From Squalus acanthias (lineage: Eukaryota), in contig CM059431.1 of NCBI GenBank assembly GCA_030390025.1, positions 143,222,001-143,286,000 on the forward strand: 64,000 nt of DNA. Direction: 5' to 3'. The position numbers were made by a program, and so were the translations under genes. Shown here one piece after another: positions 3,107-46,476 of the stretch (its first letter is position 1; every line of letters begins with the position of its first letter). The notes under the pieces were generated by a model, which saw nothing but the letters and a program-made list of their open reading frames with translations, was not told where the DNA came from and did not search any database.

Positions 3107-4528
3107 TCATTTTCTAACTAATCTCAGAATGAGTGCCCAAGGGGGATTTCACCACCTTCTTCAGCTCTTCTCTGAATTTCCTCTGGGTCGCCACATAAAT
3201 ACATGGGTTTTGAAAGCAACTCAAAAACTTCAATATTGTTCCGGTTTCAGTGGCGATATATCCAGGGTCTGTGCGGTCACCTCGGTAATAAGTGGGTTTG
3301 TCAGTCTGGTAGTTACAAAACTCACGGCAGTTGTCAGCCACAGCAATATAAAACTGCCCGATACAGTGAACAGTAAAATGATGGATTTCCTTCGGTTCTC
3401 CATCTCTGGATCGCTCTGATTTTCACTTCTGTGACCCCGGAGTCCCCTGCAGGCTCTGCTGGCCACTAAAATACGTCTGACTGTCAAATAATTAAACAAG
3501 GCGATTAAAGTAAAAGGAAGCCAAACTAACCAGGCGCTGTAAAACCAGATGTAGGCTGCACCTGGAGGTGAGGAAACAAAAGTCACACTGTTCCGGCAGC
3601 CCCATTGCACCTTGTTAATTATTTGTTCAGCTTCAAATGCAAACAATACGGGGATGTCCTTTAAAAAGATTAGGACTGAGAACGCTGTTATAATCGCGGC
3701 CGCAGTTTTCTCGGTGCAATACTTTGCTTTAAACTTCTGGCAGCAGATAACTACAAATCGATCAAATGTGAAGGAGACGGTGAACCAAACAGACAAATCG
3801 AGGGTGACAACAGTCATGTATAGAACGAACTTACACATGTGAGTGTGATACAGGAAGTAAAGTGGAAAGTGATAATTGAAAATATGATACACGATTACAT
3901 TGATGATCAAGACCAGTAGATCTGCTGTTGCCATGGCCACCATGTAGACAGAGATACACTTGGAAAGACCGCAGTTTCCCCGGGAAAGAATTACCATTGC
4001 CACCAAGTTCGCTGTAAGAAAGAGAGAGCAGAGAAATAATGTTCAAGTGTCTGATTGAAATATATATGGAGATCCCTCTGGAGAGCATTTTACTCCATTC
4101 AGTGTGATTATCAACACGGAGCAGTGTGAGAACAGGATTAGTATTGGAGCCATTACCTGGGAAACCCACCCACACATTTTAATGAGCTGCTGCAGCGCTC
4201 ACTCTGCACGGGGGGACAAGACGATCCGGAAATCCGCTAAAATCCTTGTGTTGTAGCTTCAAAGATTATTGTATCATCAGTGAGTTTATCGGAAGAAGGG
4301 GAATGCGGTAAGTGAGGACACGCGGTTTACGATTTGGTTCCACGCACTACCGACTGTGCAATGCTGCCATCTAGAAAACCAGTTACCTTATCAAACAGGC
4401 TGTATGTACATGGATACAGTTAACCCCGATTAACAACAAACAGGTTAAAATGGCTCACCAGGGACAGCGACGACCACGAGAATCGGGTAGTAAATCTCTT
4501 TGATCAGCAGAATAGTTGATTGCCCCAT
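3107..4528 (-). pseudogene. GPR139/GPR142-like class A GPCR, gene 1, frameshifted. Exon 1 4528..4459, exon 2 4011..3107
   Basis: Exon 1 encodes MGQSTILLIKEIYYPILVVVAVP plus G, then a GTGAG donor; the acceptor is TTACAG at 4012. 7TM motifs are ATADLL, TFDRFV, FILLW and NPCIY. Relative to gene 3 there is a 1-nt deletion near 3294 (premature stop at 3230) and a 1-nt insertion near 3140. The C-terminal part lies in ORF 3114..3341. Confidence 0.88.
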
Positions 4529-4605
4529 TCTCTGTGAGAATGGATGAATTCTGTCGGAACAAAATGACTCTGACTGGCGCACGGCTGGGGCAATGGAAGG
4601 GAACC

Positions 4606-4685
4606 TATATTTATCCACACATCAAACCTCCAGGGAGTCCATCAGGTTAAATCATAATTAGCATTAGTTACAGTCATTTAACAAA
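4606..4685 (-). promoter_or_regulatory. Putative proximal promoter of gene 1
   Basis: GATAAATATA lies about 80 bp upstream of the ATG. On the + strand: CTCCAGGGA at 4628-4636, TAATTA at 4655-4660 and GCATTAGTTACAGTCATTTAACAAA at 4661-4685. The layout is positionally conserved in the paralogs. Confidence 0.65.
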
Positions 4686-4970
4686 TAGACTCAGGTAAGT
4701 TGTTTTTTTATCTGATACGTCAGATTAAGAGAAATCTGTGAAATTGTTGTTGGATAGTTTTACAAAATACAGCTTTTGAACATTGTTTACGAGTAGGAAG
4801 TGCAATCTCCCAGTCCTGGTGCTGACCCTATTCCTACAGGCCTGGTGAATGCAGCTCCCCAGGCAACAATTGTCATGACCCTGCCCTTGATTCACTCCTA
4901 GTGCACCAACTCCTCCAGAACAGGCAGTGAATCAAATCCTGCAATACTGGTGAAGAGCCCAGTCTGGCAG

Positions 4971-6990
4971 CATTAGAGGTGACAGGGCTCCTCCAGTACT
5001 AGTTGTACCCTACATTTAGATTAGAGGGACAGTTCTCCTCCTGTAATACTGGCAACATAAACTTAGGCTACATGTGTCCGAACTCCTGAGGTACAAGTAC
5101 CGTGTACACTGATGTTGAACGTGCTGATATGGTAATAGTGGTAGCACAACACTAACACTACTATTGACAGTGCTACTCCTCCGATGCTAGTGGAATACCC
5201 CTCATACACTAGATGTGCGTGTGCTCCTCGTGTACAGTAGTATCTCTGCACTTACATTAGATGTGACCGTGCCCCTCCTGTCCCAGTGCTACCACTCCAC
5301 TGACACTAGATGTGACCGTGCCCCTCCTGTCCCATGGTTACCCCTCCACTGACACTAGATGTGACCGTGTCCCTCCTGTTCCAGTGTTACCCCTACACTG
5401 ACACTAGATGTGACCGTGTCCCTCCTGTCCGAGTGTTAACCCTACACTGACACTAGATGTGACCGTGTCCCTCCTGTCCCAGTGTTACCTCTACACTGAC
5501 ACTAGATGTGATCGTGCCCCTCCTTTCCGAGTGCTATCCCTACACTGACACTAGATGTGACCGTGCCCCTCCTGTCCCAGTGCTACCCCTAAACTGACAC
5601 CTGATGAGACCCCTCCTGTCCCAGTGTTACCCCTACACTTACACTAGATGTGACCGTGTCCATCCTGTCCCAGTGTTACCCCTACACTTACACTAGATGT
5701 GACGGTGCCTCTCCTGTCCCGGTGTTACCCCTACAATTACACTACATTTGACGGTGCCTCTCCTGTCCCAGTGTTACCCCTACACTTACACTAGATGTGA
5801 CCGTGTCCCTCCTGTCCCAGTGTTACCCCTACATTTACACTAGAGGTGACCGGCCTCCTTCTGTACTAGTGGTGCCCCTACAATTGCACTAGAGATGACC
5901 GGGCTCCTCCTGTACTAGTGGTGTCACTATACTTACACTAGAGGTGACCTGGCTCCTCTTATACTAGTGGTACCTCTACCCAAATTCTAGCTTTGATCGT
6001 GCTCCTCCTGTACTAGTGGTACCCCTACACTTACACTCAAGGTGACTGTGCTCCTCCTGTACTAGTGGTGCCCGTAAACTTACATTAGTTGTGACCGGGC
6101 TCCTCCGGTACTAGTGGTTCCTTCCACTTACACTAGAGGTGACCGGGCTCCTCCTGTACTAGTGGGACCATCCACTTACACTAGAGGTGACCGGGCTCCT
6201 CCGGTAATAGTGATTCCTTACACTTGCACTAGAAATTACCGGGCTCCTCCTGTACTAGTGGTACCCCTACATTTATACTAGAGGTTACCGGGCTCCTCCT
6301 GTACTCGTGGTACCCCTACACGTACACGAGTGGTGACCTGGCCCCTCCTGTACTAATGGTACCCCTACACTTACACTAGAGATGACCGGGCTCCTCCTGT
6401 ACTAGTGGTACAACTATACTTACACTAGAGGTGACTCAGCTCCTCTTATACTAGTGGTACCTTTACCCTAACACTAGCATTGCCCGGGCTCCTTCTGTAC
6501 TAGTGGTGCCCCTACACTTACACTAGCGTTGACCATGCTCCTCCTGTACTAGTGGTGCCCCTACACTTACACTCGAGGTGACCGTGCTCGTCCCGTACTA
6601 GTGGTGCCCCTACACTAACACTAGAGGTGACCGGGCTCCTCCTACATGAGTGGTACCCCTACAATAACACTACTGTTGACCGTGCTCCTCCTACACTAGT
6701 GGTACCCCTAAAATTAATCTAGAGGTAACCGTGCTCCTCCGGTACTTGTAGCACCGTCACGGTTAAGCAAGGTGTCAGCAAGTTACTCTTGTATTAGTGG
6801 TACCCCTACAATTACATTAGAGATAATAGTGCTCCTCCGGTACTAGTCGTACTCCTACATTTACACTAGTTTTGACCGTGCTCCTTCCGTACCTGTGGTA
6901 CCCTACACATACACTAGAAGTGTACCTGCTCTTCCGGTACGACTGTTACCCTTACACTTACACTAGTGGTTAACGAGCTACCATACACAT
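4971..6990 (+). repeat. Minisatellite of about 49 bp (ACACTAGAGGTGACCGGGCTCCTCCTGTACTAGTGGTACCCCTACACTT) upstream of gene 1, first part
   Basis: Tandem units are directly visible. The array resumes briefly at 7760-7810 and again at 10355-11740. Confidence 0.95.
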
Positions 6991-6991
6991 A

Positions 6992-7757
6992 GGTCCTGAA
7001 ATTCGCCTCTCCGGCTTGCCGCGGGGGTAAGGGTCGCACGCGCACTTACCTACCACGCCTGCCATTGACCTCTGGGCCCACGGTAACTTCAGCTCCTGGG
7101 CCTCTCCCAACTGCCGGCGCGCAGTGCTTGCGTGTCCCAGGGGCGCAGTTAGTGCGATGCGTCCCCTGGGTTCACGTGGGCCATGGAGAGCCAATGGCAG
7201 CAGACCATCTTTCATTCATAGATTTGACAGGAAGACCTGTCAAATCTATGAATTGAAATCGGCCCCAAAGGAACAGCTAAACTTAAAATATTTTTTTTAA
7301 AAAACCATCACATTTATAAAACAACTGTAAGTTATATAAATTAACTACTTTAAACAAAAATTTAAATTTTTGAAAAAATTAAAATTCTTTTTAACAGTGC
7401 TAAAAATAAACTTACCTTTCTTTAACGTATCTAAAAAAGATAAACCTGTTGAAAAAATGTTTAAATTATAATTAATTAACCACTCACCTTGTTGAAAACT
7501 GGTCCTGCGCCTCCTTTTTAAAAGCGCAGGTTCTACAATACTTACCCTCCCGTAGAAACCTGAAAAAAAACCTGAGTTTGCTGCGTGCGCGCAGCATCTA
7601 CCGCGCACGCGGTTCACCTCTGAACCCCTCCCTTCACCAGACCGGAAGTTCCGGTTTCCCGCGCATGCACAGTGCATGCAGGAAACCGGCACTTTAGCAC
7701 GCCTAACGGCTGAGTACAGAGTGCGTCCTCACCCGGGAAGCATCGAATTTTTGGCCC
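6992..7757. mobile_element. Non-autonomous PIF/Harbinger-like DNA transposon (MITE)
   Basis: Terminal inverted repeats GGTCCTGAAATTCG and CGAATTTTTGGCCC, a 3-bp ATA duplication on both sides, GC-rich arms and an AT-rich core. A related inverted copy lies at 19233-19970. Confidence 0.8.
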
Positions 7758-7809
7758 ATACACTAATGATCATCCTGAATCTACAGTACTCGTGGTAGCC
7801 TTACACTTA

Positions 7810-10140: not shown

Positions 10141-10189
10141 TGATGATGTGTCTTCGGATGGGGCACATGTACGCTGTAAATCACCAGCA

Positions 10190-10355: not shown

Positions 10356-11740
10356 TACACTAAATTTGAGTGTTCGCCTCCGTTACTAGTTGTACTCGAC
10401 ACTTACACTAGATGTGACGAGCTCCTCCGTTACTAGTTGTACTCGACACTTACACTAGATGTGACGAGCTCCTCCTGTACTAGTGGCACCTACACTTACA
10501 CTAGATGTGACGAGCTCCTCCTTTACTAGTGGCACCTACACTTACACTAGATGTGTGCGAGCTCCTCCTGTACTATTGGCACCTACACTTACACTAGATG
10601 TGAGCATTCTCCTCCTGTACTATTGGCACCTACACTTACACTAGATGTGTGCGAGCTCCTCCTGTACTATTGGCACCTACACTTACACTAGATGTGAGCA
10701 TTCTCCTCCTGTACTATTGGCACCTACACTTACACTAGATGTGTGCGAGCTCCTCCTGTACTATTGGCACCTACACTTACACTAGATGTGAGCATTCTCC
10801 TCCTGTACTATTGGCACCTACACTTACACTAGATGTGTGCGAGCTCCTCCTGTACTATTGGCACCTACACTTACACTAGATGTGAGCATTCTCCTCCTGT
10901 ACTATTGGCACCTACACTTACACTAGATGTGTGCGAGCTCCTCCTGTACTATTGGCACCTACACTTACACTAGATGTGAGCATTCTCCTCCTGTACTATT
11001 GGCACCTACACTTACACTAGATGTGAGCATTCTCCTCCTGTACTAGTGGCACCTACACTTGCACTAGATGTGAGCGTTCTCATCCTGTACTAGTTGCACC
11101 TACACTTACACTAGATGTGAGCATTCTACTCCTGTACTAAAGGCATCTACACTTACGCTAGATGTGAGCGCGCTCCTCCTGTACTAGTGGCACCTACACT
11201 TACACTAGATGTGAGCACGCTCCTCCTGTACTAGTGGCATCTACACTTACACTAGATGTGAGCGTTTTCCTCCTGTACTAGTGGCACCTACGCTTACACT
11301 GGATGTGAGCACGCTCTTCCTGTACTAGTGGCACTTACACTTACACTAGATGTGAGCGTTCTCCTCCTGTACTAGTGGCACATACACTTGCACTAGATGT
11401 GAGCGCGCTCCTCCAGTACTAGTGGTACCCTACACATCGACTAGTGGTGACCGGGCTCCTCTGGTACTGGTGGTACATGTCAATTACACTAGATGAGAGC
11501 GTTCACCTCCTGTACTAGTGGCACCTACACTTACACTAGATTTGAGCATTCTCCTCCTGCACTAGTGGCACCTACACTTACATGAGAAGTGACCGTGCTA
11601 CTCCGGTATTAATCGCACCAGTACCTTTGCACTAGAGGTGACCGCAATCCTGCGGTACTAGTGCAACCACTGCACTTCCTCCAGATATGACTGCGCTCCT
11701 CCGGTACTGGTGATACACGACACTTACACAAGAGGTGATC
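10355..11740 (+). repeat. 46-47-bp variant of the receptor-associated minisatellite
   Basis: Units are CTGTACTATTGGCACCTACACTTACACTAGATGTG(TGCGAG/AGCATT)CTCCTC. Confidence 0.95.
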
Positions 11741-20340: not shown

Positions 20341-22047
20341 TTAACCAAAAAATGTGCAAGGCCATTTCACCACATTCTTCAGCTCTTCCCTGAATTTACT
20401 TTGGGTAGCTGCATAAATACATGTGTTTGTACAGGAACTCAAATACATGAGCATATATCCGGTTTCAGTGGCAATATAGGCAGGAGCTGCATAATCACCT
20501 CGATATTGCGCGGTGTTTGTCAGTCTGGTAGTTAAAAAACTAACGATAGCTGTTAGCCACAACAATATAAAACTGCCCGATACACTGAACAGTAAAATAA
20601 TGGATTTCCTCCGGTTCTCCATCTCTGGGTCGCTCTGATTCTCACTGCTGTGACCCCGGAGTCCCCTGCGGGCTCTACTGGCCACTAAAATGCGTCTGAC
20701 TGTCAAACAATTAAATAGTAAGATCAAAGCAAAAGCAAGCCAAGCAATGAAAATACTTTCCAACCAGGAGTATGCTGCACCTGCAGGCGATGAAAAAAAC
20801 TCCACTCTGGCGCGGCAACCCCAGTGAACATTGTTAATTATTCTCTCAGGTTCATATGCAAACCAAAAAGGGAGGCTCTGTAAACAGATCAGGAGAGAGA
20901 CCGTTGTTATAATCGCGGCCGCAGTTCTCACTGTGCAATACTTTGTTTTAAACTTCTCACAACATATAGCTACAAATCGGTCAAATGTGAACGAGACTGT
21001 AAACCACACCGACACATACAGGGTGACACATTGCATGTACATAATGATCTTACAGACGGCAGTGTAGGACAGGAAGGAATGTGGAAAGTGATGACTGATA
21101 ATGCGGTTCACTGATATATTGATGATCATTACCAGTAGATCTGCTGTTGCCATGGCCACCATGTAGACAGAGATACATTTGGAAAGGCCGCAGTTTCCTC
21201 TGGAGAGAATCAGGATTGTCAGTAGGTTCGCTGTGAGAAAGAGGTGGAAGAGGTCAGTAACGGAGACACTCGGATAAATCTCACAGCTTATTGTGGGGAA
21301 ATGTGCGGATCTGTCCTTATTCAGCGTTATGCTCACGGATCTTTTATCATTAATATAAGCGAGGGTAAAGACACTTTATTTAAAGAAATGAAATCATTGA
21401 GAATACAATATCGAGGGACTGAAAATCCGCCGTCCTTCCAGCAAACTTCAGTCAAATACTAAATATAATTTCACGGCATTTCATTGAAAGATATAATTCA
21501 AATAAAACATTCAGCTGAGAGAAAACAGTTCAATTTAATTCGAAACGCTTCCGAGAGGAGGGGAGCAGCTCCCCGAGCAACAATTATTTCTAAAATTACC
21601 TTCCAAAGTCCAGTGTTGGGTGGAGGTGGCTGAAGTGCCAGGAATGATCAACTTAAAATAGACAGAGCACAAAGGTACGAATCAGATGATTACTATGGAC
21701 AATGAGCAACACCGTCTGAGTGATCTATGTACTGTAGGAGGGCCGGGGAATCCGCCTCGCCCTCCCTCCGTATAGGGATGACAGTTGAGCGCCCGGTGCC
21801 CACGATCTTGCGACCAGAACAGCGCCTCAGCGGCCGCGCGGACTGCCAGAATTCCCGCTGATATTCACCGACTGATCCCGGTGGATCAATGATTCTGCAA
21901 TGAGGACATTCTCGGATTCTGTTACATTAACACTGAGATAGTCAACAACTATTCGACAACAGGATACATTGACTTACCGGGAACACCGAAGGCTGCGAGC
22001 ATATGGTAGTAAATGTCCCTTATCTGTAGAATTGTTGGCCGTATCAT
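20341..22047 (-). CDS. GPR139/GPR142-like class A GPCR, gene 2, intact, 319 aa. Exon 1 22047..21978, exon 2 21230..20341
   Basis: Exon 1 encodes MIRPTILQIRDIYYHMLAAFGVP plus G, then GTAAGT; the acceptor is TTCTCACAG. 70+890=960 nt in frame. Motifs are ANLLTIL, ATADLL, TFDRFV, FILLW and NTCIY. Confidence 0.92.
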
Positions 22048-22125
22048 TATTTTGAATAATGTGTGAATTCTGTCCCGCTTTACGGTTCGGACTGGAGTTT
22101 ATCTGAGATCCGTAAATGCTCCCAA

Positions 22126-22200
22126 TTTATACAAAAATCGTTGCCCCGTGAGAAAATCAGGTGACACAATAAGTGGCGTTAGTTACAGTCACTTAACAAA
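22126..22200 (-). promoter_or_regulatory. Putative proximal promoter of gene 2
   Basis: TATAAA on - at 22126-22131. On +: CCCCGTGAGA at 22144-22153, ATCAGGT, and GCGTTAGTTACAGTCACTTAACAAA at 22176-22200 (23/25 identical to gene 1). Confidence 0.65.
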
Positions 22201-22449
22201 CAAGGAGCGATTTTCCACTTCAGTGCGCCCGGGCCACCACTGGCGAAATTGTAAAGCTCAGTCCATGAAACTCATTCCATTAAAATCATTGAGCGGAAAG
22301 TAATCCCAGAGGGAATGTTTTCTGTGCATGCCCCCTGAACGCTGAAGGGAACATCCCTCCCGGACACCGCGTTAGTTCTTGTGACCTCATTTTAATTCTC
22401 TGAAAACATCAGTCATCCATTGCATAAATTAAATTTGTTATGTACTGTA

Positions 22450-25151
22450 ATGATTACTAGTGGTGACTCAGCTCGAACATGGCTAGTGATGATCCTACTT
22501 TAACACGAACAATAATGACCATATTCTAACATTCATGGTGGTGATGTTATTCTAACATTACTGGTGGTGAATGTACTCCAACATTAGCAGTGGGGACTCT
22601 ACTATAACATTACCGGTGGTGACATTAATCCAGCATTAGAAATTCTGACCACACTCGAACATTACTGGTGATGCCCTACACTAACATTACTGAAGGTGAT
22701 CCCACTTTAACGTTACTGATGGTAGCTATAGACTAACATTAATTGTGTTGGCCCTATCGTAACATTACTGGCGGTAATCCTATTCAAATATTATTGGTGA
22801 TGACCCTACACTAACATAACTGGTGGTGATACTACTCTGAATTTACTGGCGGTGATCCTATTCAAACATTACTGGTGGTGACCCTACTCTAACATTAATG
22901 CTGATGACCTTACTCTATCATTAATGATGGTGGCCCTACTGTATCCTTACTGGTGCTGATTCTACTCTAACATTACTGGTGGTAACCCTAGTCAAATATT
23001 ACAGGTGGATGACCCTACTCTATCATTACAGGTGGGTGAACCTACTCTAACATTACTGGTGAAGACCCAACTCTAACATTACTGGTGGTGACTCTACTCT
23101 ATCATTACTGGTGGTGAACCTATACTATCATAACTGGGGGTGACACTGCTGTAACATTTCTGGTGTAGACCATACTCTAACATTACTGTGGTGAATCTAC
23201 TTTAACATTACTGGCGATGATTCTATTCTAACATTTCTGGTGTTGATGTTAATTTAACATCAATAGTCGTGACCCGCACTAACATTAGTGATGGTGAATC
23301 TATTCTAATTTTACTGCTGCTGCCACTACTAAAACGTTAATGGCAGCAATCGTACTGTTATATTACTTGTGTTTATTCTGCTCTAAGACTGATGGTGACC
23401 CGAATCTAACATTAGTGGTGGTGACATTACTCCAATATTATTGGTGGTGCATCTGCTCTAACATTGCATGTGGTCTCCATATTCTGACGTTAATGATGAG
23501 TACTGTACTCTAACATTACTGCTGGTCATCGCACTGTAAAATTAATAGTGTTAATCCTATTCTAACATAGTGGTGATAATAATCTAACAATTTGGCGGCG
23601 ACCCACTCTAACTTTACTGATGGTAACTATACGCTAACATTAATGGTGTTAGCCCTATCCTATCATTACTGGCGGTAATCCTATTCAAATATTATTGGTG
23701 TTGACCCTACACTAACATTAAGGTGGGGATAGTACACTAATATTAATGGCGGTGATCCTATTCTTTGATTACTGGTGGTGACCATACTCTAACATTAATG
23801 GTGATGACCTGACTCTAACATTACTGATGGTGGCCCTACTCTATCATTACTGGTGGTGAGTCGATCCTAACATTCTGGTGATGACCCTACTCTAACATTA
23901 CTGGTGGTGACCTTACCCTAACATTACTGGTGGTGACTCGACACTACCATTACTGATGCTGACCCTACACTAATATTACTGGTGGTGACCCTACCCTAAC
24001 ATTACTGGTGGTGACTCGACACTAACATTATTGTGTTGACCCTACACTAAAATTGCAGCTGGTGACCCTAATCTAACATTACTAGTTGTGACCCTACAGT
24101 AACATTTCTGGTGATGACTCTACTATATCATTACTGGTGGTCATCCTACTCTAACATTACTGCTCGCGAGCCTACTCTATCATTACTTTTGGTTACCCTA
24201 CTCTAACCTTACTGGTGGTGACCCTACTCTTTCATTACTGGTTGTGAACCCACACTATCATTACTGGTGGTGACCCTACTGTAACCTTACTGTCGGTGAC
24301 CCTGCGCTTACATTACTGCTGATGACCCGACTCTATCATTAATGGTGGTGTCTCTACTCTAAAATTATTGGCAGTGATTATATTCTAATATTACTGGTGA
24401 TGACCCTACTCTATCATTACTGGTGGTGACCCTACTTTATCATTACTGGTGGTGACCCTACTCTAACATTACTGCTGATGACCCTACTTTATCGTTACTG
24501 GTGGTGACCCTACGCTAACATTTCTGGTGTTGACCCTACTCTAAATTTACTGGTGAGGACCCGACTCTAACATTACTGTTGATGACCCTGCTCGAATATA
24601 ACCTGTGATGACCCTACTCTATCATTACTGGTGGTGACCCTACTCTATCATTACTGGTGTTGACCCTACTCTATCTTTACTGGTGTTGACCCTACTCTCA
24701 CAGTACTAGTGATGACCCTACTCTATCATTACTGGTGTTGACCCTACTCTATCATTACTGGTGGTGAGCCTACACTATCATTAATGGCGGTGACCCAATA
24801 TAACATTACTTGTGCCTCCCCGACTCTAACATTACTGGTGTTCATGTTAATTTAACATCAATAGTCGTGACCCCGCACTAATATTAGTGATGGTGACACA
24901 ATTCTAATTTTACTGCTGCTGCCACTACTAAAACGTTACTGGTGGAAACCCTACTGTAATATTACTTGTGTTTATTCTACTCTAAGACTGATGGTGACCC
25001 GGATCTAACATTAGTGGGTTGTCCTTACTCCAATATTATTGGTGGAGCATCTGCTCTAAATTTACATGTGGTCTCCATACTCTGACGTTACTGATGAGTA
25101 CTGTACTCTAACATTACTGCTGGTGATCGCACTCTAAAATGAATAGAGTTA
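22450..25151 (+). repeat. 26-bp minisatellite (AACATTACTGGTGGTGACCCTACTCT) upstream of gene 2
   Basis: About 100 degenerate tandem units are visible, with an internal long-range duplication. Confidence 0.95.
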
Positions 25152-25495
25152 ATGAAGGATGTTCCCGATGGCGGGGAGTCCAGAACCAGGGGTCACAGTC
25201 TAAGGATAAGGGGTAAGCCATTTAGGACTGAGATGAGGAGGAATTTCTTCACCCAGAGAGTGGTGAACCTGTGGAATTCTCTACCACAGAAGGCAGTTGA
25301 GGCCAATTCATTAAATATATTCAAGAAGGAGTTAGATATATTTCTTAAGGCTAAAGGGATCAAGGGATATGGGGAAAAGGCAGGGACAGGGTACTGAATA
25401 TGTATGATCAGCCATGATCTCATTGAATGGCGGAGCAGGCTCGAGGGGCCGAAAGGCCTACTCATGCTCCTATCTTCTATGTTTCTATGTTTCTA
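25152..25495 (+). mobile_element. CR1 LINE 3' end fragment
   Basis: Peptide ESRTRGHSLRIRGKPFRTEMRRNFF and a (CTATGTTT)n tail. Confidence 0.92.
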
Positions 25496-28175: not shown

Positions 28176-29443
28176 ATAAGTATATTAAGAGCAAGAGGAT
28201 AACCAGGGAAAGAGTAGGGCCCATTAGGGACCAAAGTGGCAATCTGTGTGTAGAGCCGGAAGATGTAGGTGAGGTTTTAAATGAATATTTTGTATCTGTG
28301 TTCACTATGGAGAAGGACGATGTAGGCATAGAAATCAGGCAGGGGGATTGTGATGTACTTGAACAAATTAGTATTGAGAGGGAGGAGGTACTAGCGGTTT
28401 TAGCAGGCTTAAAAGTGGATAAATCCCCAGGCCCTGACGGGATGTATCCAAGGCTGCTTTATGAGGCAAGGGAGGAGATTGCAGGGGCTCTGACACAAAT
28501 TTTCAGAACCTCTCTGGCCACAGGGGAGGTGCCAGAGGACTGGAGGACAGCTAACATAGCACTATTATTCAAGAAGGGTAGTAGGGATAAATCAGGGAAT
28601 TACAGGGCAGTGAGCCTAACATCAGTGGTAGGGAAATTATTGGAAGCAATTCTGAGGGACAGAATTAGTCTCCACTTGGAGAGGTAGGGATTAATCAGCG
28701 GTAGTCAGCATGGCTTTGCCAGGGGGAGATCATGTCTGATCAATTTGATTGGATTTTTCGAGTCGGTGACTAGGTGTGTGGATTAGGGTAGTGCAGTTGA
28801 TGTAGTCTACATTGAATTCAGTAAGGCATTTAACAAAGTCCCATATGGGAGACTGGTCAAGAAGGTAAGAGTCCATGGGATTCAGGGCAATTTGGCATGT
28901 TGGTTCCACAATTGACTTACTGGCAGGAGGCTGAGGGTGATGATCGAAGGTTGTTTTGGTGACTGGAAGCCTGTGTCCAGTGGTGTACCGCAGGGATCGC
29001 CGCTGGGTACATTGCTGTTTGTAGTGTACATTAATGATTTAGATATGAATGTCGGAGGTATGATCAGTAAGTTCGCAGATGACACAAAAATTGGTGGATT
29101 GTTAAATAGCGTGGAGGGAAGCCTCAGGCAACAGGACGATATAGACGGTATGGTTAGATTGTCAGAACTGTTGCAATTGGAATTTAACACTGAAAAGTGA
29201 AAGGTGATGCATTTTGGGAGTACAAACAAGGCAAGGGAATACACAATGAATGGTAGGATCCTAGGAATTACAGAGGATCAGTGTGACCTTGGTGTGCATG
29301 TATATAGATCCCTGAAGGCTGCAGGACAGGTCGACAAGGTGGTTAAAAAGGCATATGGGATACTTGCCTTCATTAGCCGAGGCATAAAATATAAGTGAGA
29401 AGTCGCACAACACCAGGTTATAGTCCAACAGATTTATTTAATT

Positions 29444-29481
29444 TTACAAGCTTTCGGAGCTATCGCTCCTTCGTCAGGTAA
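29444..29481 (-). ncRNA. Mirror copy of the hammerhead ribozyme in the left Penelope arm
   Basis: Exact reverse complement of 31215-31252. Confidence 0.8.
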
Positions 29482-30342
29482 GTTAGCAATGAGAGAATCT
29501 CCCAGAATTCACAATTTAAACCCAGACAAAATCTATTCACATTATTCGCTACAACAAAGAGCACAGCCAAGACAATGAGATGTGTCCCAGGGGGTCCAGC
29601 GTGTCAAACCACCTGCTGGCTGCATATCCTGTCAATTTGTGTTCTTGTGTTTTTAAAAAAAAAACAAAAACAAAAACAAAAAAAAAAAAAACACCTGGGA
29701 AGACCGGCCATGATGTCAAGTCACGTTCTGTATCGTGACATGAACCCGATATCGCGATTGAGGCCATCCTCATGAGTGCGGAACTTGGCTATCAGTTTCT
29801 GCTCTATGATTTTGCGCTGTCGTGTATCTCGAAGGCCGCCTTGGAGAACGCTTACCCGCAGATCCGAGGCTGAATGCCCCTGGCTGCTGAAGTGTTCCCC
29901 GACTGGGAGGCAACCCTCCTGCCTGGCGATTGTTGCGCGGTGTCCGTTCATACGTTGTCTCAGTGTCTGCATGGTCTCGCCGATGTACCATGCTCTGGAG
30001 CATCCTTTACTGCAACGTATCAGGTAGACAACGTTGGCCGAGTCACATGAGTATGTACCGTGTACCTGGTGGGTAGTGTCCTCACGTGTAATGATGGTAT
30101 CTGTGTCCATGATTTGGCATGTCTTGCAGAGGTTGCCGTGGCAGGGTTGTGTGGTGTCTTGGTTGCTGTTCTCCTGAAAGATGGGTAATCTGCTGCGAAC
30201 GATGGTACTTTTGAGGTTAGGCGGCTGCTTGAAGGCGAGTAGTGGAGGCGTGGGGATGGCCTTAGCAAGGTGTTCGTCGTCATCGATGACATGTTGAAGG
30301 CTGCGAAGAACATGGCGTAGTTTTTCCGCTCCGGGGAAGTCC

Positions 30343-30975
30343 TACGTCGTCCAGTACTTCCCCGGAGCGGAAAAACTACGCCATGTTCTTCGCAGCCTTC
30401 AACATGTCATCGATGACGACGAACACCTTGCTAAGGCCATCCCCACGCCTCCACTACTTGCCTTCAAGCAGCCGCCTAACCTCAAAAGTACCATCGTTCG
30501 CAGCAGATTACCCATCTTTCAGGAGAACAGCAACCAAGACACCACACAACCCTGCCACGGCAACCTCTGCAAGACATGCCAAATCATGGACACAGATACC
30601 ATCATTACACGTGAGGACACTACCCACCAGGTACACGGTACATACTCATGTGACTCGGCCAACGTTGTCTACCTGATACGTTGCAGTAAAGGATGCTCCA
30701 GAGCATGGTACATCGGCGAGACCATGCAGACACTGAGACAACGTATGAACGGACACCGCGCAACAATCGCCAGGCAGGAGGGTTGCCTCCCAGTCGGGGA
30801 ACACTTCAGCAGCCAGGGGCATTCAGCCTCGGATCTGCGGGTAAGCGTTCTCCAAGGCGGCCTTCGAGATACACGACAGCGCAAAATCATAGAGCAGAAA
30901 CTGATAGCCAAGTTCCGCACTCATGAGGATGGCCTCAATCGCGATATCGGGTTCATGTCACGATACAGAACGTGA
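30343..30975 (+). CDS. Penelope GIY-YIG endonuclease domain with a Cys-rich linker (fragment; mirror copy on - at 29721-30340)
   Basis: PPLLAFKQPPNL, CHGNLCKTC, NVVYLIRC...WYIGET...RQRMNGH, VGEHF, EQKLI and GLN. Confidence 0.9.
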   Translation, partial: YVVQYFPGAEKLRHVLRSLQHVIDDDEHLAKAIPTPPLLAFKQPPNLKSTIVRSRLPIFQENSNQDTTQPCHGNLCKTCQIMDTDTIITREDTTHQVHGTYSCDSANVVYLIRCSKGCSRAWYIGETMQTLRQRMNGHRATIARQEGCLPVGEHFSSQGHSASDLRVSVLQGGLRDTRQRKIIEQKLIAKFRTHEDGLNRDIGFMSRYRT

Positions 30976-31214
30976 CTTGACATCATGGCCGGTCTTCCCA
31001 GGTGTTTTTTTTTTTTTTGTTTTTGTTTTTGTTTTTTTTTTAAAAACACAAGAACACAAATTGACAGGATATGCAGCCAGCAGGTGGTTTGACACGCTGG
31101 ACCCCCTGGGACACATCTCATTGTCTTGGCTGTGCTCTTTGTTGTAGCGAATAATGTGAATAGATTTTGTCTGGGTTTAAATTGTGAATTCTGGGAGATT
31201 CTCTCATTGCTAAC

Positions 31215-31252
31215 TTACCTGACGAAGGAGCGATAGCTCCGAAAGCTTGTAA
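31215..31252 (+). ncRNA. Minimal type-I hammerhead ribozyme in the Penelope pLTR
   Basis: UUAC-CUGACGA-A-GGAGC(GAUA)GCUCC-GAAA-GC-UU-GUAA. Stem I is UUAC/GUAA, the core is CUGANGA plus GAAA, and the palindromic AGCU forms stem III. Confidence 0.8.
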
Positions 31253-31894
31253 AATTAAATAAATCTGTTGGACTATAACCTGGTGTTGTGCGACTTCTCA
31301 TTTTTGTCCACCCCAGTCCAACGCCGGCATCTCCACATCATAAAATATAAGAGCAGGGAGGTTATGATGGAGCTGTACAAAACGCTAGTTAGGTCACGGC
31401 TGGAATACTGTGTGCAGTTCTGTTCACCACACTATATGACGGATGTGATTGCATTGGAGAGGGAGCATAGTAGTTTCACAAGGATGTTACCTGGGCTGGA
31501 GCGCTTCAGCTATGAGGAGAGACTGGACAGGCTGGGATTGTTTTCCTTGGAGAAGAGAAGGCTGAGGGGGGACCTGATTGAGGTGTACAAAATTATGAGG
31601 GGCATAGATAGGGTAGGTAGAAAGGAACTTGTCCCCTTAGTAGAGCGGTCAATAACCAGGGGGCATAGTTTCAAGATAAGGAGCAGGAGGTTTAGAGGGG
31701 ATTTGAGGAAAAAACTTTTCACCCAGAGGGTGGTTGGAATCTGGAACTCACTGCCTGAAAGGGTGGTAGAGGCAGGAAACCTCACAACATTCAAGAAGTA
31801 TTTAGATGAGCACTTGAAACGCCATAGCATACAAGGCTACGGACCAAGTGCTGGAAAATGGGATTAGAATATACACGGCTTGATGGCCAGCGCT

Positions 31895-33195
31895 TTGAAG
31901 GAGCACAGTCACTAATAGTGTAAATGTAGGAGTATCACTAGTATCGGAGGAGCACTGTTATTTCCAGTGTAATTATAGGGGTACCACTAATGCAAGAGCA
32001 TCATGGTCACACCTAGTTTAAGTGTAGCGGTACTACTTGTACCGGAGGAGCACGGTCACCGCTAGTGTTAGTGTAGGTTAGCACTAGTGTAGAATGAGCA
32101 TTGTCAACACTAGTGTTAGTGTAGGTTACCACCAGTTTAGGAGGAGCACGGTTTACATTAGTGTAAGTGTAAGTTACCACTAGTGTAGGTAGAACACGGT
32201 CAACACTAGTGTTAGTGTAGTGATTCCACGAGCACCTGAGGAGGACGGTGACTGTAAGTGTAAGTGTAGGCATGCCACTAGTGAATGCTCCTCTGTAGTA
32301 TAAGTGTATGTACAACAAGTACCAGAGGAGCAAGGTCACATAAAGTGCCAGCACATCTTTTTGAGCAGCACGTGTACGTGTCGGGGACCACAAGTACGGG
32401 AGGAGCACGGTTAAATCTGGTCTTAGTGTAGGGGTATCACTAGTACCGAAGGAGCACAGTCAAACTTAATGTAAATATAGGGATACCACTAGTACAGGAG
32501 GAGCACAGTCACATCTAGTGTAAGTGTAGGGTTTCCACTGGTACTGGAGGAAAATTTTCACCACTGGTGTAATTTTACTGATACCACTATTACCAGAGGA
32601 GCTTGCACAAATCTAGTGTAAGTGTAGGGGTAGCACTGGGACAGGATGGGCACGATCACATCTAGTGTAAGTGTAGGGGTAGCACTGGGACAGGAGGAAC
32701 ACGATCACATCTAGTGTAAGTGTAGGGGTAAAACTGGGCCATGTGGGGCACGGTCACATCTAGTGTCAGTGTAGGGGTAACACTGGGACAGGAAGGGCAC
32801 GGTCACATCTAGTGTAAGTGTAGGGATAACACTGGGACAGGAGGGGCACGGTCACATCTAGTGTATGTGTAGTGGTAACACTGGGACAGGAGGGACACGG
32901 TCACATCTAGTCTCAGTGTAGGGGTAACACTGGGACAGGAAGGGCACGGTCACATCTAGTGTCAGTGTAGGGATAACACTGGGACAGGAGGAGCACATGC
33001 TCATATAGTGTATGAGGGGGGTTTCCACTAGTACCGGAGGAGCTCTGCCAATAGTAGTGCTAGTGTAGTGCTACCACTATTACCATAGCAGCACGTTCAA
33101 CTCCAGTGTAGGCATGTTACTAGTGCCTGATGAGTACGGACACATCTAGCGTAAGTGTACAGTGCCAGTAGCCCAGGAGGAGAACTGTCACCTCG
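31895..33195 (-). repeat. Receptor-associated minisatellite of about 49 bp upstream of gene 3 (reverse orientation)
   Basis: CACGGTCACATCTAGTGTAAGTGTAGGGGTAACACTGGGACAGGAGGGG units are the reverse complement of the gene 1 array. Confidence 0.93.
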
Positions 33196-33475
33196 AATGC
33201 TGCCGGACTGGGTTCATCACCAATATCGCACGATGTGATTCTGGAGGAGTTGGTGCACTAGGAATGAATCAAGGGAAGGGTCATGACAATTATTGCCTGG
33301 GAAGCTGCCTTCAACAGGCCTGTAGGAATAGGGTCAGAAATAGTCCTTGGAGAATGCACTTCATACACGTAGACAATGTTTTAAATCTGCATTTTTTTTG
33401 TAATTGTCCAACAACAATTTCACATATTTCTCTTAAACTGACGTATCAGATAAAAAAACAACTTACCTGAGTCTA

Positions 33476-33555
33476 TTTGTTAAATGACTGTAACTAATGC
33501 TAATTATGATTTAACCTGATTTACTCGCTGGAGAATTGATGTGTGTATAAATATA
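33476..33555 (+). promoter_or_regulatory. Putative proximal promoter of gene 3
   Basis: TTTGTTAAATGACTGTAACTAATGC at 33476-33500, then TAATTA, ACCTGAT, TCGCTGGAG and TATAAATATA at 33546-33555. Confidence 0.65.
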
Positions 33556-33632: not shown

Positions 33633-34992
33633 ATGGGGCGAACAATTATTCTGCTGAGCACAGAGTTTTACTACCCGATTCTCGCGGCCGTCGGTGTCCC
33701 CGGTGAGCCATGGTAGCCTGTTTTTTGTTAATCGGTGTTAATTGTATTCATGTACATACAGCCTGTTTGATAAGATAACGAGTTTTCCAGATTTCAGCAG
33801 TATACAAATCCGATAACCTCACTGATGTTGCAATGTTCTTTGAAGCTCCAACACAAGGATTTCAGCAGATTTCCGGACCGTCTTGTCTCCCCGTGAAAAG
33901 TGAGCGCTGCAGTAGCTCATTAAAATGTGTGGGTCGTTTTTTCACGCAATGGTTCCAAAGCTAATCCTGTTCTCACACTGCTCCCTATTGATAATCACAC
34001 TGAATGGATTAAATTGCTCACCACAGGATCTCCATATATATTTCAATCAGACACTGGGATATTATTTCTCTCCTCTCTTTTTTACAGCGAATTTGGTGAC
34101 AATTGTGATTCTCTCCCGAGGAAACTGCGGCCTTTCCAAGTGTATCTCTGTCTACATGGTGGCCATGGCAACAGCAGATCTACTGGTCATGACAGTCAAT
34201 GTAATAGTGTGTCATATTTTCAATTATCGCTTTCCACTTTCATTCCTATCCCAGACTCCCGTGTGTAAGTTCATTCTATACATGACTGCTATCAACCTCG
34301 ATTTGTCTGTTTGGTTCACCGTCTCCTTCACATTTGACCGATTTGTAGTTATCTGCTGCCAGAAGTTTAAAGCAAAGTACTGCACCGAGAGAACTGCATC
34401 CGCGGTTATCACAGCGTTCACGGTCCTGATCCTTTTAAGGGGTATCCACATTTTGTTTGCATTTGAACCACAGCAAATAATTAACAAGGTGCAGTGGGGC
34501 TGCCGGAACAGTGTGACTTTTGTTTCCTCACCTCCAGGTGTTGCCTACATCTGGTTTCACAGCGCCTGGAGCGTTTGGCTTCCTTTTACTTTAATTGCCT
34601 TGTTAAATTATTTGACAGTCAGACGTATTTTAGTGGCCAGCAGAGCCCGCAGAGGACTCCGGGGTCACAGGAGTGAAAATCAGAGCGATACCGAGATGGA
34701 GAACCGAAGGAAATCCATCATTTTACTTTTTACTATATCCGGCAGTTTTATATTGCTGTGGCTGACAACTGCCGTGAGTTTTGTAACTACCAGACTGAAA
34801 AACACCACCTATTACCGAGGTGACCGCACAGACCCTGGATATATCGCCACTGAAACCGGAACAATGTTGAAGTTTTTGAGTTGCTTTCAAAACCCGTGTA
34901 TTTATGTAGCGACCCAGAGGAAATTCAGAGAAGAGCTGAAGAAGTTGGCAAAATCCCCCTGGGCACTAATTCTGAAATTAGTTAGAAAATGA
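33633..34992 (+). CDS. GPR139/GPR142-like class A GPCR, gene 3, intact, 324 aa. Exon 1 33633..33702, exon 2 34088..34992
   Basis: Exon 1 encodes MGRTIILLSTEFYYPILAAVGVP plus G, then GTGAG; the acceptor is TTTACAG. 70+905=975 nt in frame. Motifs are TFDRFV, FILLW and NPCIY. Confidence 0.92.
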
Positions 34993-41300: not shown

Positions 41301-43217
41301 AGTTGTAGAGTGAACTGATATCCGGGGCTGACGGACTTGATGTTGGGTTTTACTCCCCTAATTTGGTGGTCTGGTAGATTTCCGGGACTGGGGAAAATGA
41401 TATCTGGTCACTGAGAAAGCCGAAGCATTCAGACATAGACACAGACCAACGGCACATTTCCTGTTCTTAGACAATCAGACTGTGACCTCATTTCCTGCGG
41501 CTCATCCTGAAGAACGCCAAATTCTGGAGTACCGGTTCCCTGCTGACATAGGCGAGGTGTTTAAAAATTAAATCTGATTCGTCACACTTCTGACACTAAC
41601 AGCCAATGGGTGCAACGATCAGCCGATTCTGTGACGTGTCACCAATTCTATTCAGGAGCTCCTGCATCTTTCACTCCCTGCAGTTTGTTTGTTCAGCTGT
41701 TTTATTTTACTTTTGTAGTTCAAGGATAACAAATAAATCGCTAATATTTATGTTTACTGTTTTTGCGCGATGATTAACCTTGTGGGCAATAGCGCTAGGC
41801 ATTTAATTGCTTTCCTTTAATATAACGCAAAATGTAATTAATTCCGGCTGAGCTAATGCTCCCTTTAGATTCTTCTACCATTGAGTGGAACAATTTGCAG
41901 ATTCCAATGCTAAGTGCCGCCGTCAGACTCAGGACGGAGCCGTGTAATCCTCCAGTAACAGTCTACAACCACAGAACTCTCTGCACTGTTATACAAACAC
42001 ATCCAACGCGATCATCGTGTACCGACTTGAAGATATACGATTGAGAACTTCACGCGATTTACACGCGAAATAATCAAGTCGTTCTTGCTTCTTCATTATG
42101 CAATAGAATTATAGCAAACATTTAAATCTGTTACTGCCTCTAAGAATTTATGAGAGACTAGGTTGCATCTAAAAGAACCAAAAGTTGATCCACAATCCAA
42201 ATACTGCCACTGCACAAGTGATTTTGATTGTAAAGAGGCTTTAAACAGTAGCTGGCTGCTTCAACAGTGTCGGTATTTTAAAATTAGTATTCCGAAAATA
42301 GGAAACAATTCAATAATTCTGTTATTTAACTGAAATTTCCTCAGCTTTAGTGAAATCTGCCGATTGGCAGCAACGGATTTTAAACAACCCAAATGACTTT
42401 TCATTATAGTCAATGAAAAGGGAATTTCGGGTGCAGTGTATGACTGGCGGACAGTCCGCTTCAGTCACATTTCCGGCCAGGCCGAAATTGAAAATGCTCG
42501 TCATTCAGAATATTCAGATTCTACCAAACCTAAATGGACTTTTCAACTTGTGCTAAAAACAGATAATATTGGTGACACTGAATTACTCCTTCTAACCAAT
42601 TCAGGAGATTTGGCTGGAAATAATGAACTTGGGTTAACTTGGCCACGGGCGGGTCACCTATTACACCATCCGCCGGATCTTCACCGCAATATTGGCCGGG
42701 TCCTATAACAGGCGGTGATATGATTTTCCGCTACTGCACAAGACGAGCCTCCAGCCCCTTGCATTTATATAGCACCTTTCAAACAATAATTTTGACTTAT
42801 AGTCAATGTTGTAAAGACAGGAAATACAAAATCAATGTGAACACAGCGAGGTCCCACACACAGCAATGAGGTAAATGACCAGATAGAGTGAAATTGGGCA
42901 TGGGCGGGTGTCGCAAAATTGGCGGTATCGCATCGCTCACCTATTACACGCTTCACCCGATATTCAATTCCAATGAATTCAATACAATTGAATATCGGGC
43001 ATGTGGTATGGCGGTCGGTTAAATGGGATTCCGTTAATTTTACATTTCCGCCCAAGTCGAATTTCACCCGAAAATCTGTTGTAAACTCTCAATCTGCTTG
43101 TATTTCTGCTCGTTGAGTGTTAAATACTGACCAGGACACCAGAAGTTCAGAGATACCAAACAAGGCCTAATCCTGTAACTGTGCGAAATTCTTTACCGAA
43201 CTCCAATCTCGGTTAGA

Positions 43218-43610
43218 TAGAAATAGAAACATGGAAAGATAGGAGCAGGAGTAGGCCATTCGGCCCTTCGAGCCTGCTCCATCGTTCAATATGATCCTGG
43301 CTGATCCTCTATCTCAATACCTTATTCCCGCTCTCCCCCCACGGTCCTTGATGTCTTTTGCGTCTAAAAATCTATCTATCTCCTTTTAAATATATTCATT
43401 GACTTGGCCGCCACAGCCTTCTCTGGTAGAGAATTCCAGATGTTCACCATCCTCTGAGTGAAGAAATTTCTCTTCATCTCAGTCCTATATGTCCTACCCC
43501 TTATCCTGAGACTGTCACGCCTCGTTCTAGACTTCCCAGACAGGGGAAACATCCTCCCTGCAGTATGTCTGTCTAGCCCTGTCAGAATTGTATACGTTTA
43601 AATGAGATGT
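43218..43610 (-). mobile_element. CR1 LINE 3' end fragment
   Basis: Tail and 3'UTR TAGAAACATGGAAAGATAGGAGCAGGAGTAGGCCATTCGGCCC, plus ORF2 C-terminal sequence. Confidence 0.9.
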
Positions 43611-45068
43611 TACTGTTTTTCACTTGGACGCTAACCCATGATAGACAGGCGACGGAAGAGCTGTTACAGTAATCACCCACGCTCCTTCCCCCACCGTCCC
43701 CTTTTATTGTGGGCGGGTGATTCCGGCACTGGGCGGAAAACAACATCATCAGGAAAACTACAGGCATGCAGTAGATGGAAGGCACCGCGAAAAAATACAA
43801 CCCAGCTGTCGAAAATAAAACACATGCAAGCCAATCAGTTTAAAATTAATGTAAACCAACAAAGCAATTAATATAACAGTGTTCTCTGTTTATATGCGCA
43901 AACCGGTAAACTGAATAGAACAGCGGAAGCAGTCAGAGACAGTCCTCTGACTTTCTTACACATCCTGCAGTGTGAACAGTGGATTTACCCAGTTCGAGGA
44001 ACAGCTTCTCCACATCATCTTCCAATCTCCAATCAATATACTGCAGAATAAATTGGTATACAGCTTCTACCGAGGCTCAGATATTGTCGGGCGGAAAAAA
44101 ATCGATTTAAGTCGTTCAAATCTTCCACTGAAGCCTTTGCCTCGAGCAACGCTCTCAAACCTAGGTCCCCAGTGGTGCTGGACAGAGCTCCGAATACACC
44201 GCCTTGCACTGGGGATACCTGGTCAACATCAGTTGGTAAAACAGTCTGGGTATTAAGCGGCACTCTCTGTGCACCAACACACAGAGCAGGTTATTTCATA
44301 TTAATATATGTGATTCCTGGATACTGATCCATGCCTGAAATGCCCCGATTAGGAATTTGTATTTCTTACTCTGTGCTTCCAGGTTACAGGGTCTCTGATT
44401 CACATTTATAGCAGTCAGATTCACCATCATACATTTAGTAACAGCAAGTAACAACTTTATTTGTTGCTGGGCAGCCTTCAACTATTTCTCATTGATAGAG
44501 TCATCAGAAAAAACAGCTAAAGCGAGGCAACGCCAGTAAACATTCAAAAAGTGGTAAAACATCCCAACACTGTGAAGGGGACAGCGGCACCGCTCCTTAT
44601 TCCCTGGAGAAGGGGTGAAGCGGCCCTTGCAGCTGCAATCAGTCCAAGCAACATTTTCACCAGACCTGCTAGAAATAGTAAGGGAAGCGGGAGTTGTAAA
44701 CGACAAAATCTTTCCCTAAAACTGGTGAATTATCCGTTCAATATATGGTAGAATGGATTACACTTCTCGCAGAATCAGATATTTAACCAATTGGTAAACT
44801 ATTGTATCACACTATTGAAGTTCACTTCATTACTGACATTTTTCATACTTAATGACCTTGTTTGGGAGGAAACACTCGGTCAAAGAACTGCGGAAACCCA
44901 CAGTCCATGTTGGCGTAAATTCTACAAAGGGGCCCAAATATAATTCAAATATACTTGTGTACCTGTGAGGTTTTACAAGAACAATCCTTATGTAACGGTT
45001 AGCAGAGGGAACCCCAGTCTAAGTTGGAACACGAGCTGGAACGGAATTCTAATGTTCCAACCGAAGCT

Positions 45069-46476
45069 CTAGTTCAGCTTTCTTTCATGTTTAACCAATC
45101 TTAGAATCAGTGTCGAGGGAGATTTCATCAGCTTCTTCAGCTCTTCTCTGAACTTCCTCTGGGTCGCTGCATAAATACACGGGTTTATACAGGAACTCAA
45201 AAGCTTCAGCATGGCTCCGGTTTCAGTGGCGATATAAGCTGGGTTTGTGCGGTCGCCTCGGTAATAATTGATGTTTGTCATTCTGGTAATTAACAAATTC
45301 ACGGCAGTTGTCAACCAAAGCAATATAAAACTGCCCGATATAGCGAAGAGCAAAATGATGGATTTCCTTCGGTTCTCCAGCTCTGGATCGCTCTGATTCT
45401 CACTCTTGTGACCCCGGAGTCCCCTGCGGGTTCTGATAGCCATTAAAATACGTCTGACGGTCAAATAATTAAACAAAGCCATTAAGGTAAAGGGAAGCCA
45501 AACGAGCCATATGATGTGAAACCAGAGATACGCTTCACCTGGAGGTGCGGAAAAAAAAGCTACACTTGACCGACAGCCCCACTGCACCTTGTTAATTATT
45601 TGCTCAAATTCATATGCAAAAAAAGCGACAATGCCCTTTAAAAAACTCAAAATAGAGAACGATGTTATAACCGCGGCCGCAGTTCTCTCGGTGCAATACT
45701 TTACTTTAAACTTCTGGCAGCAGATAACTACACATCGGTCAAATGTGAAGGAGACGGTGAACCAAACAGACAAATCGAAGGTGACAGCATTCATGTATAG
45801 ATTTAACTTACACACGGGAGTCTGGGACATGAAGGAAAGTGGAAAGTGATAATTTAAAATATAATACGCCATTACATTAATGATCATGACCAGTAGATCT
45901 GCTGTTGCCATGGCCACCATATAGACAGAGATACACTTGGAAAGGCCGCAGTTTCCTCGGCAGAGAATCACGATTGTCACCAAGTTCGCTGTAAGAAAGA
46001 GAGAGGAGAGAAATAATGTTCCAGTGTCTGATAGAAATACATATGTAGATACCTGTTGAGGGCATTTTACTCCATTCAGTGTGATTATCAACGGGAGCAG
46101 TGTAAGAAAATGATTAGTATTGGAGCCATTACCTGGGAAACCCACCCACACATTTTAATGAGCTGCTCAAACGCTCACTCTGCACGTGTTGACAAGACTG
46201 TCCGTAAATCCATAAATACCTTGTGTCGGAGCTTCAAAGAGCATTGAACATCAGTAAGGTTATCAGATTAAAGGAAAAGCGCGGAGTGTGAAACGCGGTT
46301 CATTGTGCAATGCTGACATCCGTAAAACAGTTACCTTATGCAACAGACTGCAAGAACACAGAAATAGTTAACACCGATTAACAACAAACAGATTGCAATG
46401 ACTTACCGGGGACACCGACAGCTGCGAGAATCGGGTACTAAATCTCTTTGACCAGCAGTATAGCTGGTCGCCCCAT
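45069..46476 (-). pseudogene. GPR139/GPR142-like class A GPCR, gene 4, with a nonsense codon in exon 1. Exon 1 46476..46407, exon 2 45988..45069
   Basis: Exon 1 reads MGRPAILLVKEI*YPILAAVGVP; the TAG at 46438-46440 replaces the TAC of the paralogs. Donor GTAAGT, acceptor TTACAG. Exon 2 is fully open, with DRC instead of DRF. Confidence 0.88.

Follow-up and report, generated by a model that had tools for sequence, protein, structure and literature searches.

An expanded family of GPR139-related class A receptors in Squalus acanthias with a candidate chemosensory role

Receptor genes in the window

The stretch analyzed here, called the window, comprises 64,000 nucleotides (C7:143,222,001-143,286,000; CM059431.1) of the 3.7-Gb assembly of Squalus acanthias and carries four members of a G-protein coupled receptor (GPCR) family that is expanded in elasmobranchs. 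Feature coordinates are window positions; C1 to C30 denote contigs of the assembly, L loci in that genome and P database proteins. A search with diverse family members found exactly four family loci in the window, and its long open reading frames (ORFs) are the four receptor exons plus debris of long interspersed nuclear elements, long terminal repeat (LTR) elements and other retroelements. Genes B and C are intact. Gene B (minus strand; exon 1, 21978..22047; exon 2, 20341..21230) encodes a product of 319 aa and gene C (plus strand; exon 1, 33633..33702; exon 2, 34088..34992) a receptor of 324 aa. Gene A (minus strand; exon 1, 4459..4528; exon 2, 3107..4011) is a pseudogene, in which a 1-nt deletion near 3295 shifts the frame in extracellular loop 3 (ECL3)/transmembrane helix 7 (TM7) and a 1-nt insertion near 3140 comes after. 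Gene D (minus strand) has an open frame in exon 2 (45069..45988), but is a pseudogene owing to a premature TAG (46440-46438) in exon 1 (46407..46476). The four paralogous seven-transmembrane (7TM) receptors read from the sequence in the original prediction, two intact and two disrupted in mixed orientations, were all recovered. The DRC motif noted there is present in TM3 of gene D, while the family typically has DRF.

In all four genes a 70-nt coding exon 1 is followed by a phase-1 GT-AG intron at P|ANL, as had been proposed. Exon 1 had also been described as identical between the genes; this holds for its length, but not for its sequence, which agrees at 47-60 of 70 nt between pairs. Three sequencing runs of one study (different organism, tissue not given, library kind guessed) contained paralog fragments, one intron-spanning contig and one spliced contig. 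In the spliced contig, from a related organism (run X2; library kind guessed as RNA; depth 3.4), exon 1 and exon 2 are joined exactly at the intron predicted for gene C, which lends slight backing to the two-exon splice model.

Solely Pfam 7tm_1 was matched by the three exon-2 products searched (E 1e-20 to 1e-22; threshold E<=0.1). The AlphaFold model of the homolog P0001, which is 81% identical to gene C (mean predicted local distance difference test score 70), shows a 7TM bundle, a hairpin in ECL2 and hardly any N-terminus. Its first helix comprises residues 3-34 and N1.50 is residue 25, so that the N-terminus is very short, in line with the earlier reading. Against class A folds the model reached Z 25-27 in a fold search; such searches did not discriminate among class A receptors, and their top rows were tied peptide receptors. 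The ECL2 hairpin is of the peptide-receptor type, and a cysteine pair is present. The four window genes are genuine two-exon class A GPCR genes, two of them intact and two broken.

Family size and distribution

With gene C as query, 4,660 candidates were obtained in the S. acanthias genome, and the 131 that were scored were all 74-100% identical. A 23-nt pattern of the window subfamily had 198 exact genome matches, and the degenerate TM3 pattern W[FL]T[VIM]xFTxDR had 2,445 (control, 0). Of the homologous proteins, 104 of 120 close ones and 56 of 89 remoter ones contain the TM3 pattern; because part of the homologs lack it, 2,445 is an undercount, and all these size counts may include copies from duplicated haplotypes. 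Among the 131 scored gene-C matches, 11 fall into five groups that agree in score and frame length (three groups extend across contigs), so that exact duplicates appear to make up a minor part of the matches. Clusters were found on C1, C3, C6, C7, C12, C18, C21, C26, C29 and C30 and on many small contigs. The median pairwise identity is 56%, and 99 proteins form 20 groups at 70%.

Intactness was scored in a non-random sample, the first 100 listed TM3-pattern matches, which lie on C1-C7 only. L129 and L130 were dropped for lack of the motif, and L047, with an open frame and no acceptor found, was excluded from the intact count. Exon 2 is open in 57 of the 100 loci (54 by script, with open frame and acceptor; 3 pattern misses added by eye), and ∼43 are broken, some of the frameshifts possibly being assembly errors. 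Scaled to the genome, an open exon 2 is expected at ∼1,140-1,630 loci, a slightly high estimate of intact genes as exon 1 was checked in a minority of the sampled loci. Nearest-neighbour identity is at least 0.95 for 23 of the 57 open members. The lineage-specific birth-and-death expansion that had been suggested was, if anything, understated: the genome-wide census yields thousands of loci rather than few.

Beyond the S. acanthias genome, 1,933 protein clusters matched in the databases. The best 120 of these are all from sharks and rays (11 species) and mostly bear the label 'probable G-protein coupled receptor 139'; members occur also in skates and stingrays. No chimaera was named among the 150 matches with names that were examined, P0206 being shown without organism. 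These data show that the family consists of elasmobranch-expanded class A GPCRs with at least 2,445 loci in S. acanthias. In other elasmobranchs it may be much smaller; indeed, the available text of a survey of batoid tandem clusters names Pcdh and V2R and omits this family (10.1101/2025.06.08.657570), so that its size may vary greatly among species. The genes are already in databases, through automatic annotation as 'probable GPR139'. A description of the family was not found in the literature searched, which included passages of shark and ray genome papers and covered few subscription journals. The three sawfish supplement files gave 0 matches for 'receptor 139', and the Greenland-shark preprint 0 mentions of GPCRs.

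Satellites and a shared promoter element

A short element lies upstream of each window gene: on the minus strand at 4671..4687 for gene A (156 nt upstream of the ATG), 22186..22202 for gene B and 46619..46635 for gene D, and on the plus strand at 33474..33490 for gene C, where TATAAA follows at 33546-33551. Its consensus is T[GA]TTTGTT(C)AA[AG]TGACTGTAAC, and it is mostly found 145-162 nt 5' of the ATG, ahead of the TATA box. Where exon 1 was found, 27 of 30 loci have the element (strict pattern, 17/30), which spans subfamilies on seven chromosome-scale contigs. The strict pattern had 1,306 matches genome-wide, compared to 10 control matches, and the element is retained where introns no longer align. 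Its core, TGTTTGTT, resembles a forkhead site. In an upstream alignment inspected by eye no motif of the O/E type, a feature of odorant receptor (OR) promoters, was conspicuous.

All four genes also have a satellite upstream: a 49-bp array at 5132..6966 (gene A), a 26/52-bp array at 22522..25137 (gene B) that is related to the 48/49-bp arrays, 48/49-bp arrays at 32044..33068 (gene C) and a 48-bp array at 47017..47264 (gene D). These related 26- and 47-49-bp arrays start ∼475-600 nt upstream of the ATG and are oriented alike with respect to each receptor gene. The 48-mer appears to consist of two diverged copies of the 26-mer.

At L046 (C3:206840476-206844376) the promoter element is tandemly duplicated upstream of exon 1 with a spacing of 48 nt. 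The adjoining bases are similar to a portion of the 26-bp satellite unit, a hint that the element and the satellite could have a common origin. At 10356-11738 of the window a 47-bp array from this satellite family stands alone, without an adjacent receptor, and positions 7128-7476 match the 3' flank of gene B (79%). Given these two remnants, a further receptor copy may have been lost there.

Relation to GPR139 and GPR142

A family profile searched against the PDB matched human GPR139 best (E 4.8e-17), followed by CCR1 (1.2e-12). S. acanthias has its own GPR139, a single locus at C18:26.7 Mb, and a 57% identical paralog, taken to be GPR142, as a single locus at C24:7.9 Mb. After GPR142, the other genome matches of shark GPR139 share 26-33% identity with it, and nearly all of the next ones resemble the family (37 of 40 picks were open members). 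The phase-1 intron at P|AN is common to the family, the shark's own GPR139 and a single-copy relative on C9.

Phylogenetic trees were rooted on three mollusc-type rows and built without OR, TAAR, V1R or T2R rows, as a quick tree of 54 rows and a careful tree of a 26-row subset. In the careful tree GPR139 and GPR142 form a clade of their own (100/100), apart from the family, which is sister to a salamander gene (100/99). Family and salamander gene join two conserved lineages (99/96) and then amphioxus genes (96/84). The quick tree agrees. A forced clade of the family with GPR139/142 was rejected by the approximately unbiased (AU) test (p=0.0029), the tested group having been named after the quick tree was seen. 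Separate GPR139 and GPR142 loci, a separate clade and the AU rejection together argue that the family did not arise as duplicates of GPR139 or GPR142. The kinship claimed in the original prediction therefore survives as the best PDB profile match and the shared P|AN intron, but a placement within GPR139/GPR142 does not. On the evidence of these trees, the family arose from a third lineage of the GPR139/GPR142 superclade, without a name so far.

Compared with GPR139 and GPR142, vertebrate orphan class A GPCRs that respond to Trp and Phe (PDB 7vug, 9m42), the family has the same TM1 pattern YY..L...G.PAN, the same phase-1 intron before AN, and W3.41, N5.58 and W6.48; P7.50 is likewise missing in most members. 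In contrast, identity is low (∼26-33%), and thousands of copies stand against one each. The family has C3.25 (64/65) and an ECL2 cysteine (59/65), both of which GPR139/142 lack, DRF instead of DRY, has lost P6.50 and does not retain the agonist residues.

The sister gene, the P0210 group labelled 'probable GPR139', was found in frogs, salamanders and a caecilian, with one cluster per species (20 amphibian clusters, 66-74% identical); a sturgeon match reaches 46%. It was not found in amniotes or teleosts among 25 word-seeded matches. Conserved and apparently single-copy in amphibians, it suggests that one ancestral gene apparently stayed single there and gave rise to thousands in S. acanthias. 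The P0210, P0212 and L004/anchovy P0242 lineages group with the family (99/96), with the amphioxus genes outside; unlike the family, their genes keep R/K6.51 and are not expanded among the matches seen. The P0212 lineage, again labelled 'probable GPR139', extends from sharks to squamates and turtles and is apparently single-copy, with some models fused to TMEM183A. The L004 (C9:120522000-120531900)/anchovy P0242 lineage, also under this label, is apparently single-copy as well and shared with teleosts. Both lineages are distinct from GPR139 and from GPR142 and have retained R6.51. A genome search with the PF10324 (Srw) profile matched three galanin-receptor-like loci and the C9 relative; the family was not matched.

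Sequence variation and selection

Variation was analyzed in 65 non-redundant members of the 99 proteins. N1.50, D2.50, W3.41, DR, N5.58 and N7.49 are invariant (65/65), and intracellular loops (ICL) 1 and 2 nearly so; N1.50, D2.50, DR and N7.49 together with Pfam 7tm_1 identify the family as class A. Positions 2.64, 3.29, 3.32, 6.51, 6.58 and 7.39 are hypervariable. Mean entropy was highest in the pocket (2.28 bits, 29 positions), lower in the rest of the outer TM part (1.84 bits, 55 positions; p=0.008 against the pocket) and lowest in the cytoplasmic TM part (0.74 bits, 115 positions). The pocket list follows generic class A numbering, and the test was run after the site table was seen.

The ratio of nonsynonymous to synonymous substitution rates (dN/dS) shows a similar partition. 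In 26 disjoint paralog pairs it was 0.24 (0.20-0.27) in the cytoplasmic TM part and 0.31 in ICL and helix 8, compared to 0.87 (0.67-1.11) in the pocket and 0.87 in the extracellular loops. In 18 young pairs (92-99.5% identity) the cytoplasmic TM value was 0.25. Positive selection was not detected by pairwise counting, the only method applied, as the pocket and ECL intervals include 1. In the conserved parts the synonymous rate (dS) is reduced as well, possibly through gene conversion.

The tryptophan/phenylalanine site of GPR139 consists of F109, H187, W241, R244 and N271, according to a passage of the published work (PMC5430874); in generic numbering these are F3.33, H5x43, W6.48, R6.51 and N7x38/39. 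In the family, 59 of 65 members retain W6.48, 25 the TM5 histidine, 10 F3.33, 6 N7.39 and 2 R6.51; none (0/65) has all five residues. The loss of these residues and the presence of the C3.25/ECL2 cysteine pair argue against simple inheritance of amino-acid sensing, and the Trp/Phe sensing that had been carried over from GPR139/142 is not borne out. D3.37 is present in 51 of 65 members. Judged from these residues, larger or cationic ligands are tentatively suggested.

Possible function of the family

Vertebrate chemoreceptor families are marked by clustered birth-and-death evolution, pseudogenes, compact genes, a short N-terminus, a variable pocket beside a conserved cytoplasmic face and a shared promoter motif. 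The family described here is large and clustered, shows birth-and-death turnover with many pseudogenes and combines a variable pocket with a conserved transducer face; together with its compact genes, short N-terminus and shared promoter, it has these features in common with the OR, TAAR, V1R-ORA, V2R-OlfC and T2R families. It differs from them in matching Pfam 7tm_1 only and in an intron that splits TM1. Assignment to the ORs, whose signature is a MAYDRYVAIC-type motif in an intronless coding region, was considered and rejected: Pfam 7tm_4 is absent, TM3 reads TFDRFVAIC followed by CCQKL, and the intron lies in TM1. For TAAR, V1R and T2R, which are not in the trees, the check consisted of the Pfam result and of the top 60 PDB profile matches, which contained no TAAR.

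The conserved cytoplasmic face and the variable pocket lead us to infer a repertoire with many ligands and one transducer. Copies have spread as a compact unit of satellite, promoter element, TATA box, 70-nt exon and 0.9-kb exon, often becoming pseudogenes; selection holds the G-protein face nearly fixed and lets pocket and extracellular loops vary. Such a family would discriminate ligands. The shared promoter element would drive expression in one cell class, where each receptor would bind a different external molecule and all would signal via the same G protein. This cell class is most probably chemosensory, for example olfactory microvillous neurons, taste cells or solitary chemosensory cells of skin or gill, and the ligands would likely be diverse waterborne peptides or other organics, not specifically free Trp or Phe. 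A chemosensory role is the likeliest for the family, and we regard the case as evenly poised. More tentatively, and with some doubt prevailing, we propose that the receptors represent an overlooked seventh vertebrate chemoreceptor family of elasmobranchs, whose chemoreceptor repertoires are regarded as the smallest among vertebrates. It would have been recruited independently from a GPR139-related lineage, with more than 1,000 intact genes in S. acanthias (the scale of mammalian ORs) under a shared promoter switch and hidden behind the label 'probable GPR139'.

Expansions in the same receptor neighbourhood provide a precedent for the sensory reading. Published passages report that GPR139 clusters with FMRFamide, MIP and sex-peptide receptors (PMC12208981), that the srw chemoreceptors of nematodes diverged from rhodopsin receptors of the peptide type (PMC3963977) and that ∼450 FMRFamide-R-like genes are expanded in Lymnaea, although the snail authors favour neuropeptide and reproductive roles (PMC11589774). 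The shark family resembles these in its broad neighbourhood (Atlas neighbours by features) and in lineage-specific tandem expansion; it differs in being an independent expansion, with the mollusc-type rows outside the chordate clade.

Several points weigh against a chemosensory role. The link of the family to a sensory tissue comes solely from gene architecture. In the accessible part of a catshark study, the 'brain & olfactory epithelium' library has no GPCR among its top 50 genes (PMC11979771); this is weak counter-evidence, since expression per gene is low in large families. V2Rs and the V2R co-receptor already account for receptor expression of catshark olfactory sensory neurons, as far as the available passages go (10.1101/2022.11.27.518102; PMC11979771). 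The broken share of the sampled loci and the NLR genes intermixed with the receptor clusters over multi-megabase domains count on the same side, and relaxed constraint accounts for the pocket dN/dS as well as diversifying selection does.

The intermixed NLR genes bear on an immune or barrier repertoire, in which receptors on leukocytes, mast-like cells or epithelial sentinel cells would detect microbial and parasite peptides and metabolites and would have expanded with the NLRs, in functional analogy to the MRGPR or FPR expansions. A NACHT search of the genome gave 481 candidates, of which 95 were scored; 10 of the 95 map within C7:138-147 Mb, and a further 15 are on C29. A listed receptor likewise occurs on 19 of 53 small contigs with NACHT matches. 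The contrast between a variable pocket and a conserved transducer face agrees just as well with an immune repertoire, and the modelled ECL2 hairpin of the peptide-receptor type and the cysteine pair would suit it. However, the co-location possibly reflects just duplication-prone domains, and the clusters at C1:98-103 Mb, C3:206-208 Mb and C6:67-85 Mb contain no NACHT match among the 95 scored. We consider an immune role unlikely, though a serious competitor. A further alternative is a largely neutral amplification, in which a satellite-flanked unit would have multiplied through segmental duplications within repeat-rich domains, with the majority of copies redundant or barely expressed and few of them mattering. 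The ∼43 broken loci per 100 sampled, the many near-identical neighbours, the satellite upstream of 4/4 window genes and the silence of the batoid survey on this family would all agree with it. Purifying selection even in young paralogs, a promoter element kept where introns no longer align and the many members in 11 elasmobranch species among the best 120 clusters speak against it, making this explanation improbable. The least probable account, a GPR139/GPR142-type repertoire sensing Trp and Phe, seems to us very doubtful: GPR139 is the best profile match, the intron position is shared and W6.48 and the TM5 histidine are kept to the extent given above, but R6.51, N7.39 and F3.33 are mostly lost, the complete site is found in no member, the AU test rejects the required clade, and a thousand different pockets would far exceed the need for 20 amino acids.

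A chemosensory role would bear on a standing puzzle, the keen smell of sharks with a tiny known receptor repertoire. Excerpts of published work put the olfactory repertoires of cartilaginous fishes at 20-62 complete genes (PMC10869828) and describe, in the whale-shark genome paper, a relative paucity of GPCRs in this group (PMC8455134). More than 1,000 intact, pocket-diversified GPCRs in one shark genome challenge the picture of paucity, whatever their function. If sensory, they would constitute a new vertebrate chemoreceptor class; if immune, a GPCR-based innate repertoire alongside the NLR expansion. The apparently single-copy amphibian sister gene is a potential genetic model.

Other elements in the window

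Positions 29393-31303 form an inverted repeat, perfect over 951 nt and interrupted by a spacer of 9 nt, containing two mirror copies of a 206-225-aa ORF and poly-T tails. The mirrored ORF had no Pfam match and presumably corresponds to the endonuclease end of a Penelope-type element, which it resembles. Two origins are conceivable for the repeat, a recent palindromic insertion of a retroelement or an artefact of the assembly. The satellite upstream of gene B adjoins the pol region of a decayed LTR retrotransposon with reverse transcriptase, RNase H and integrase fragments (25427-27344).

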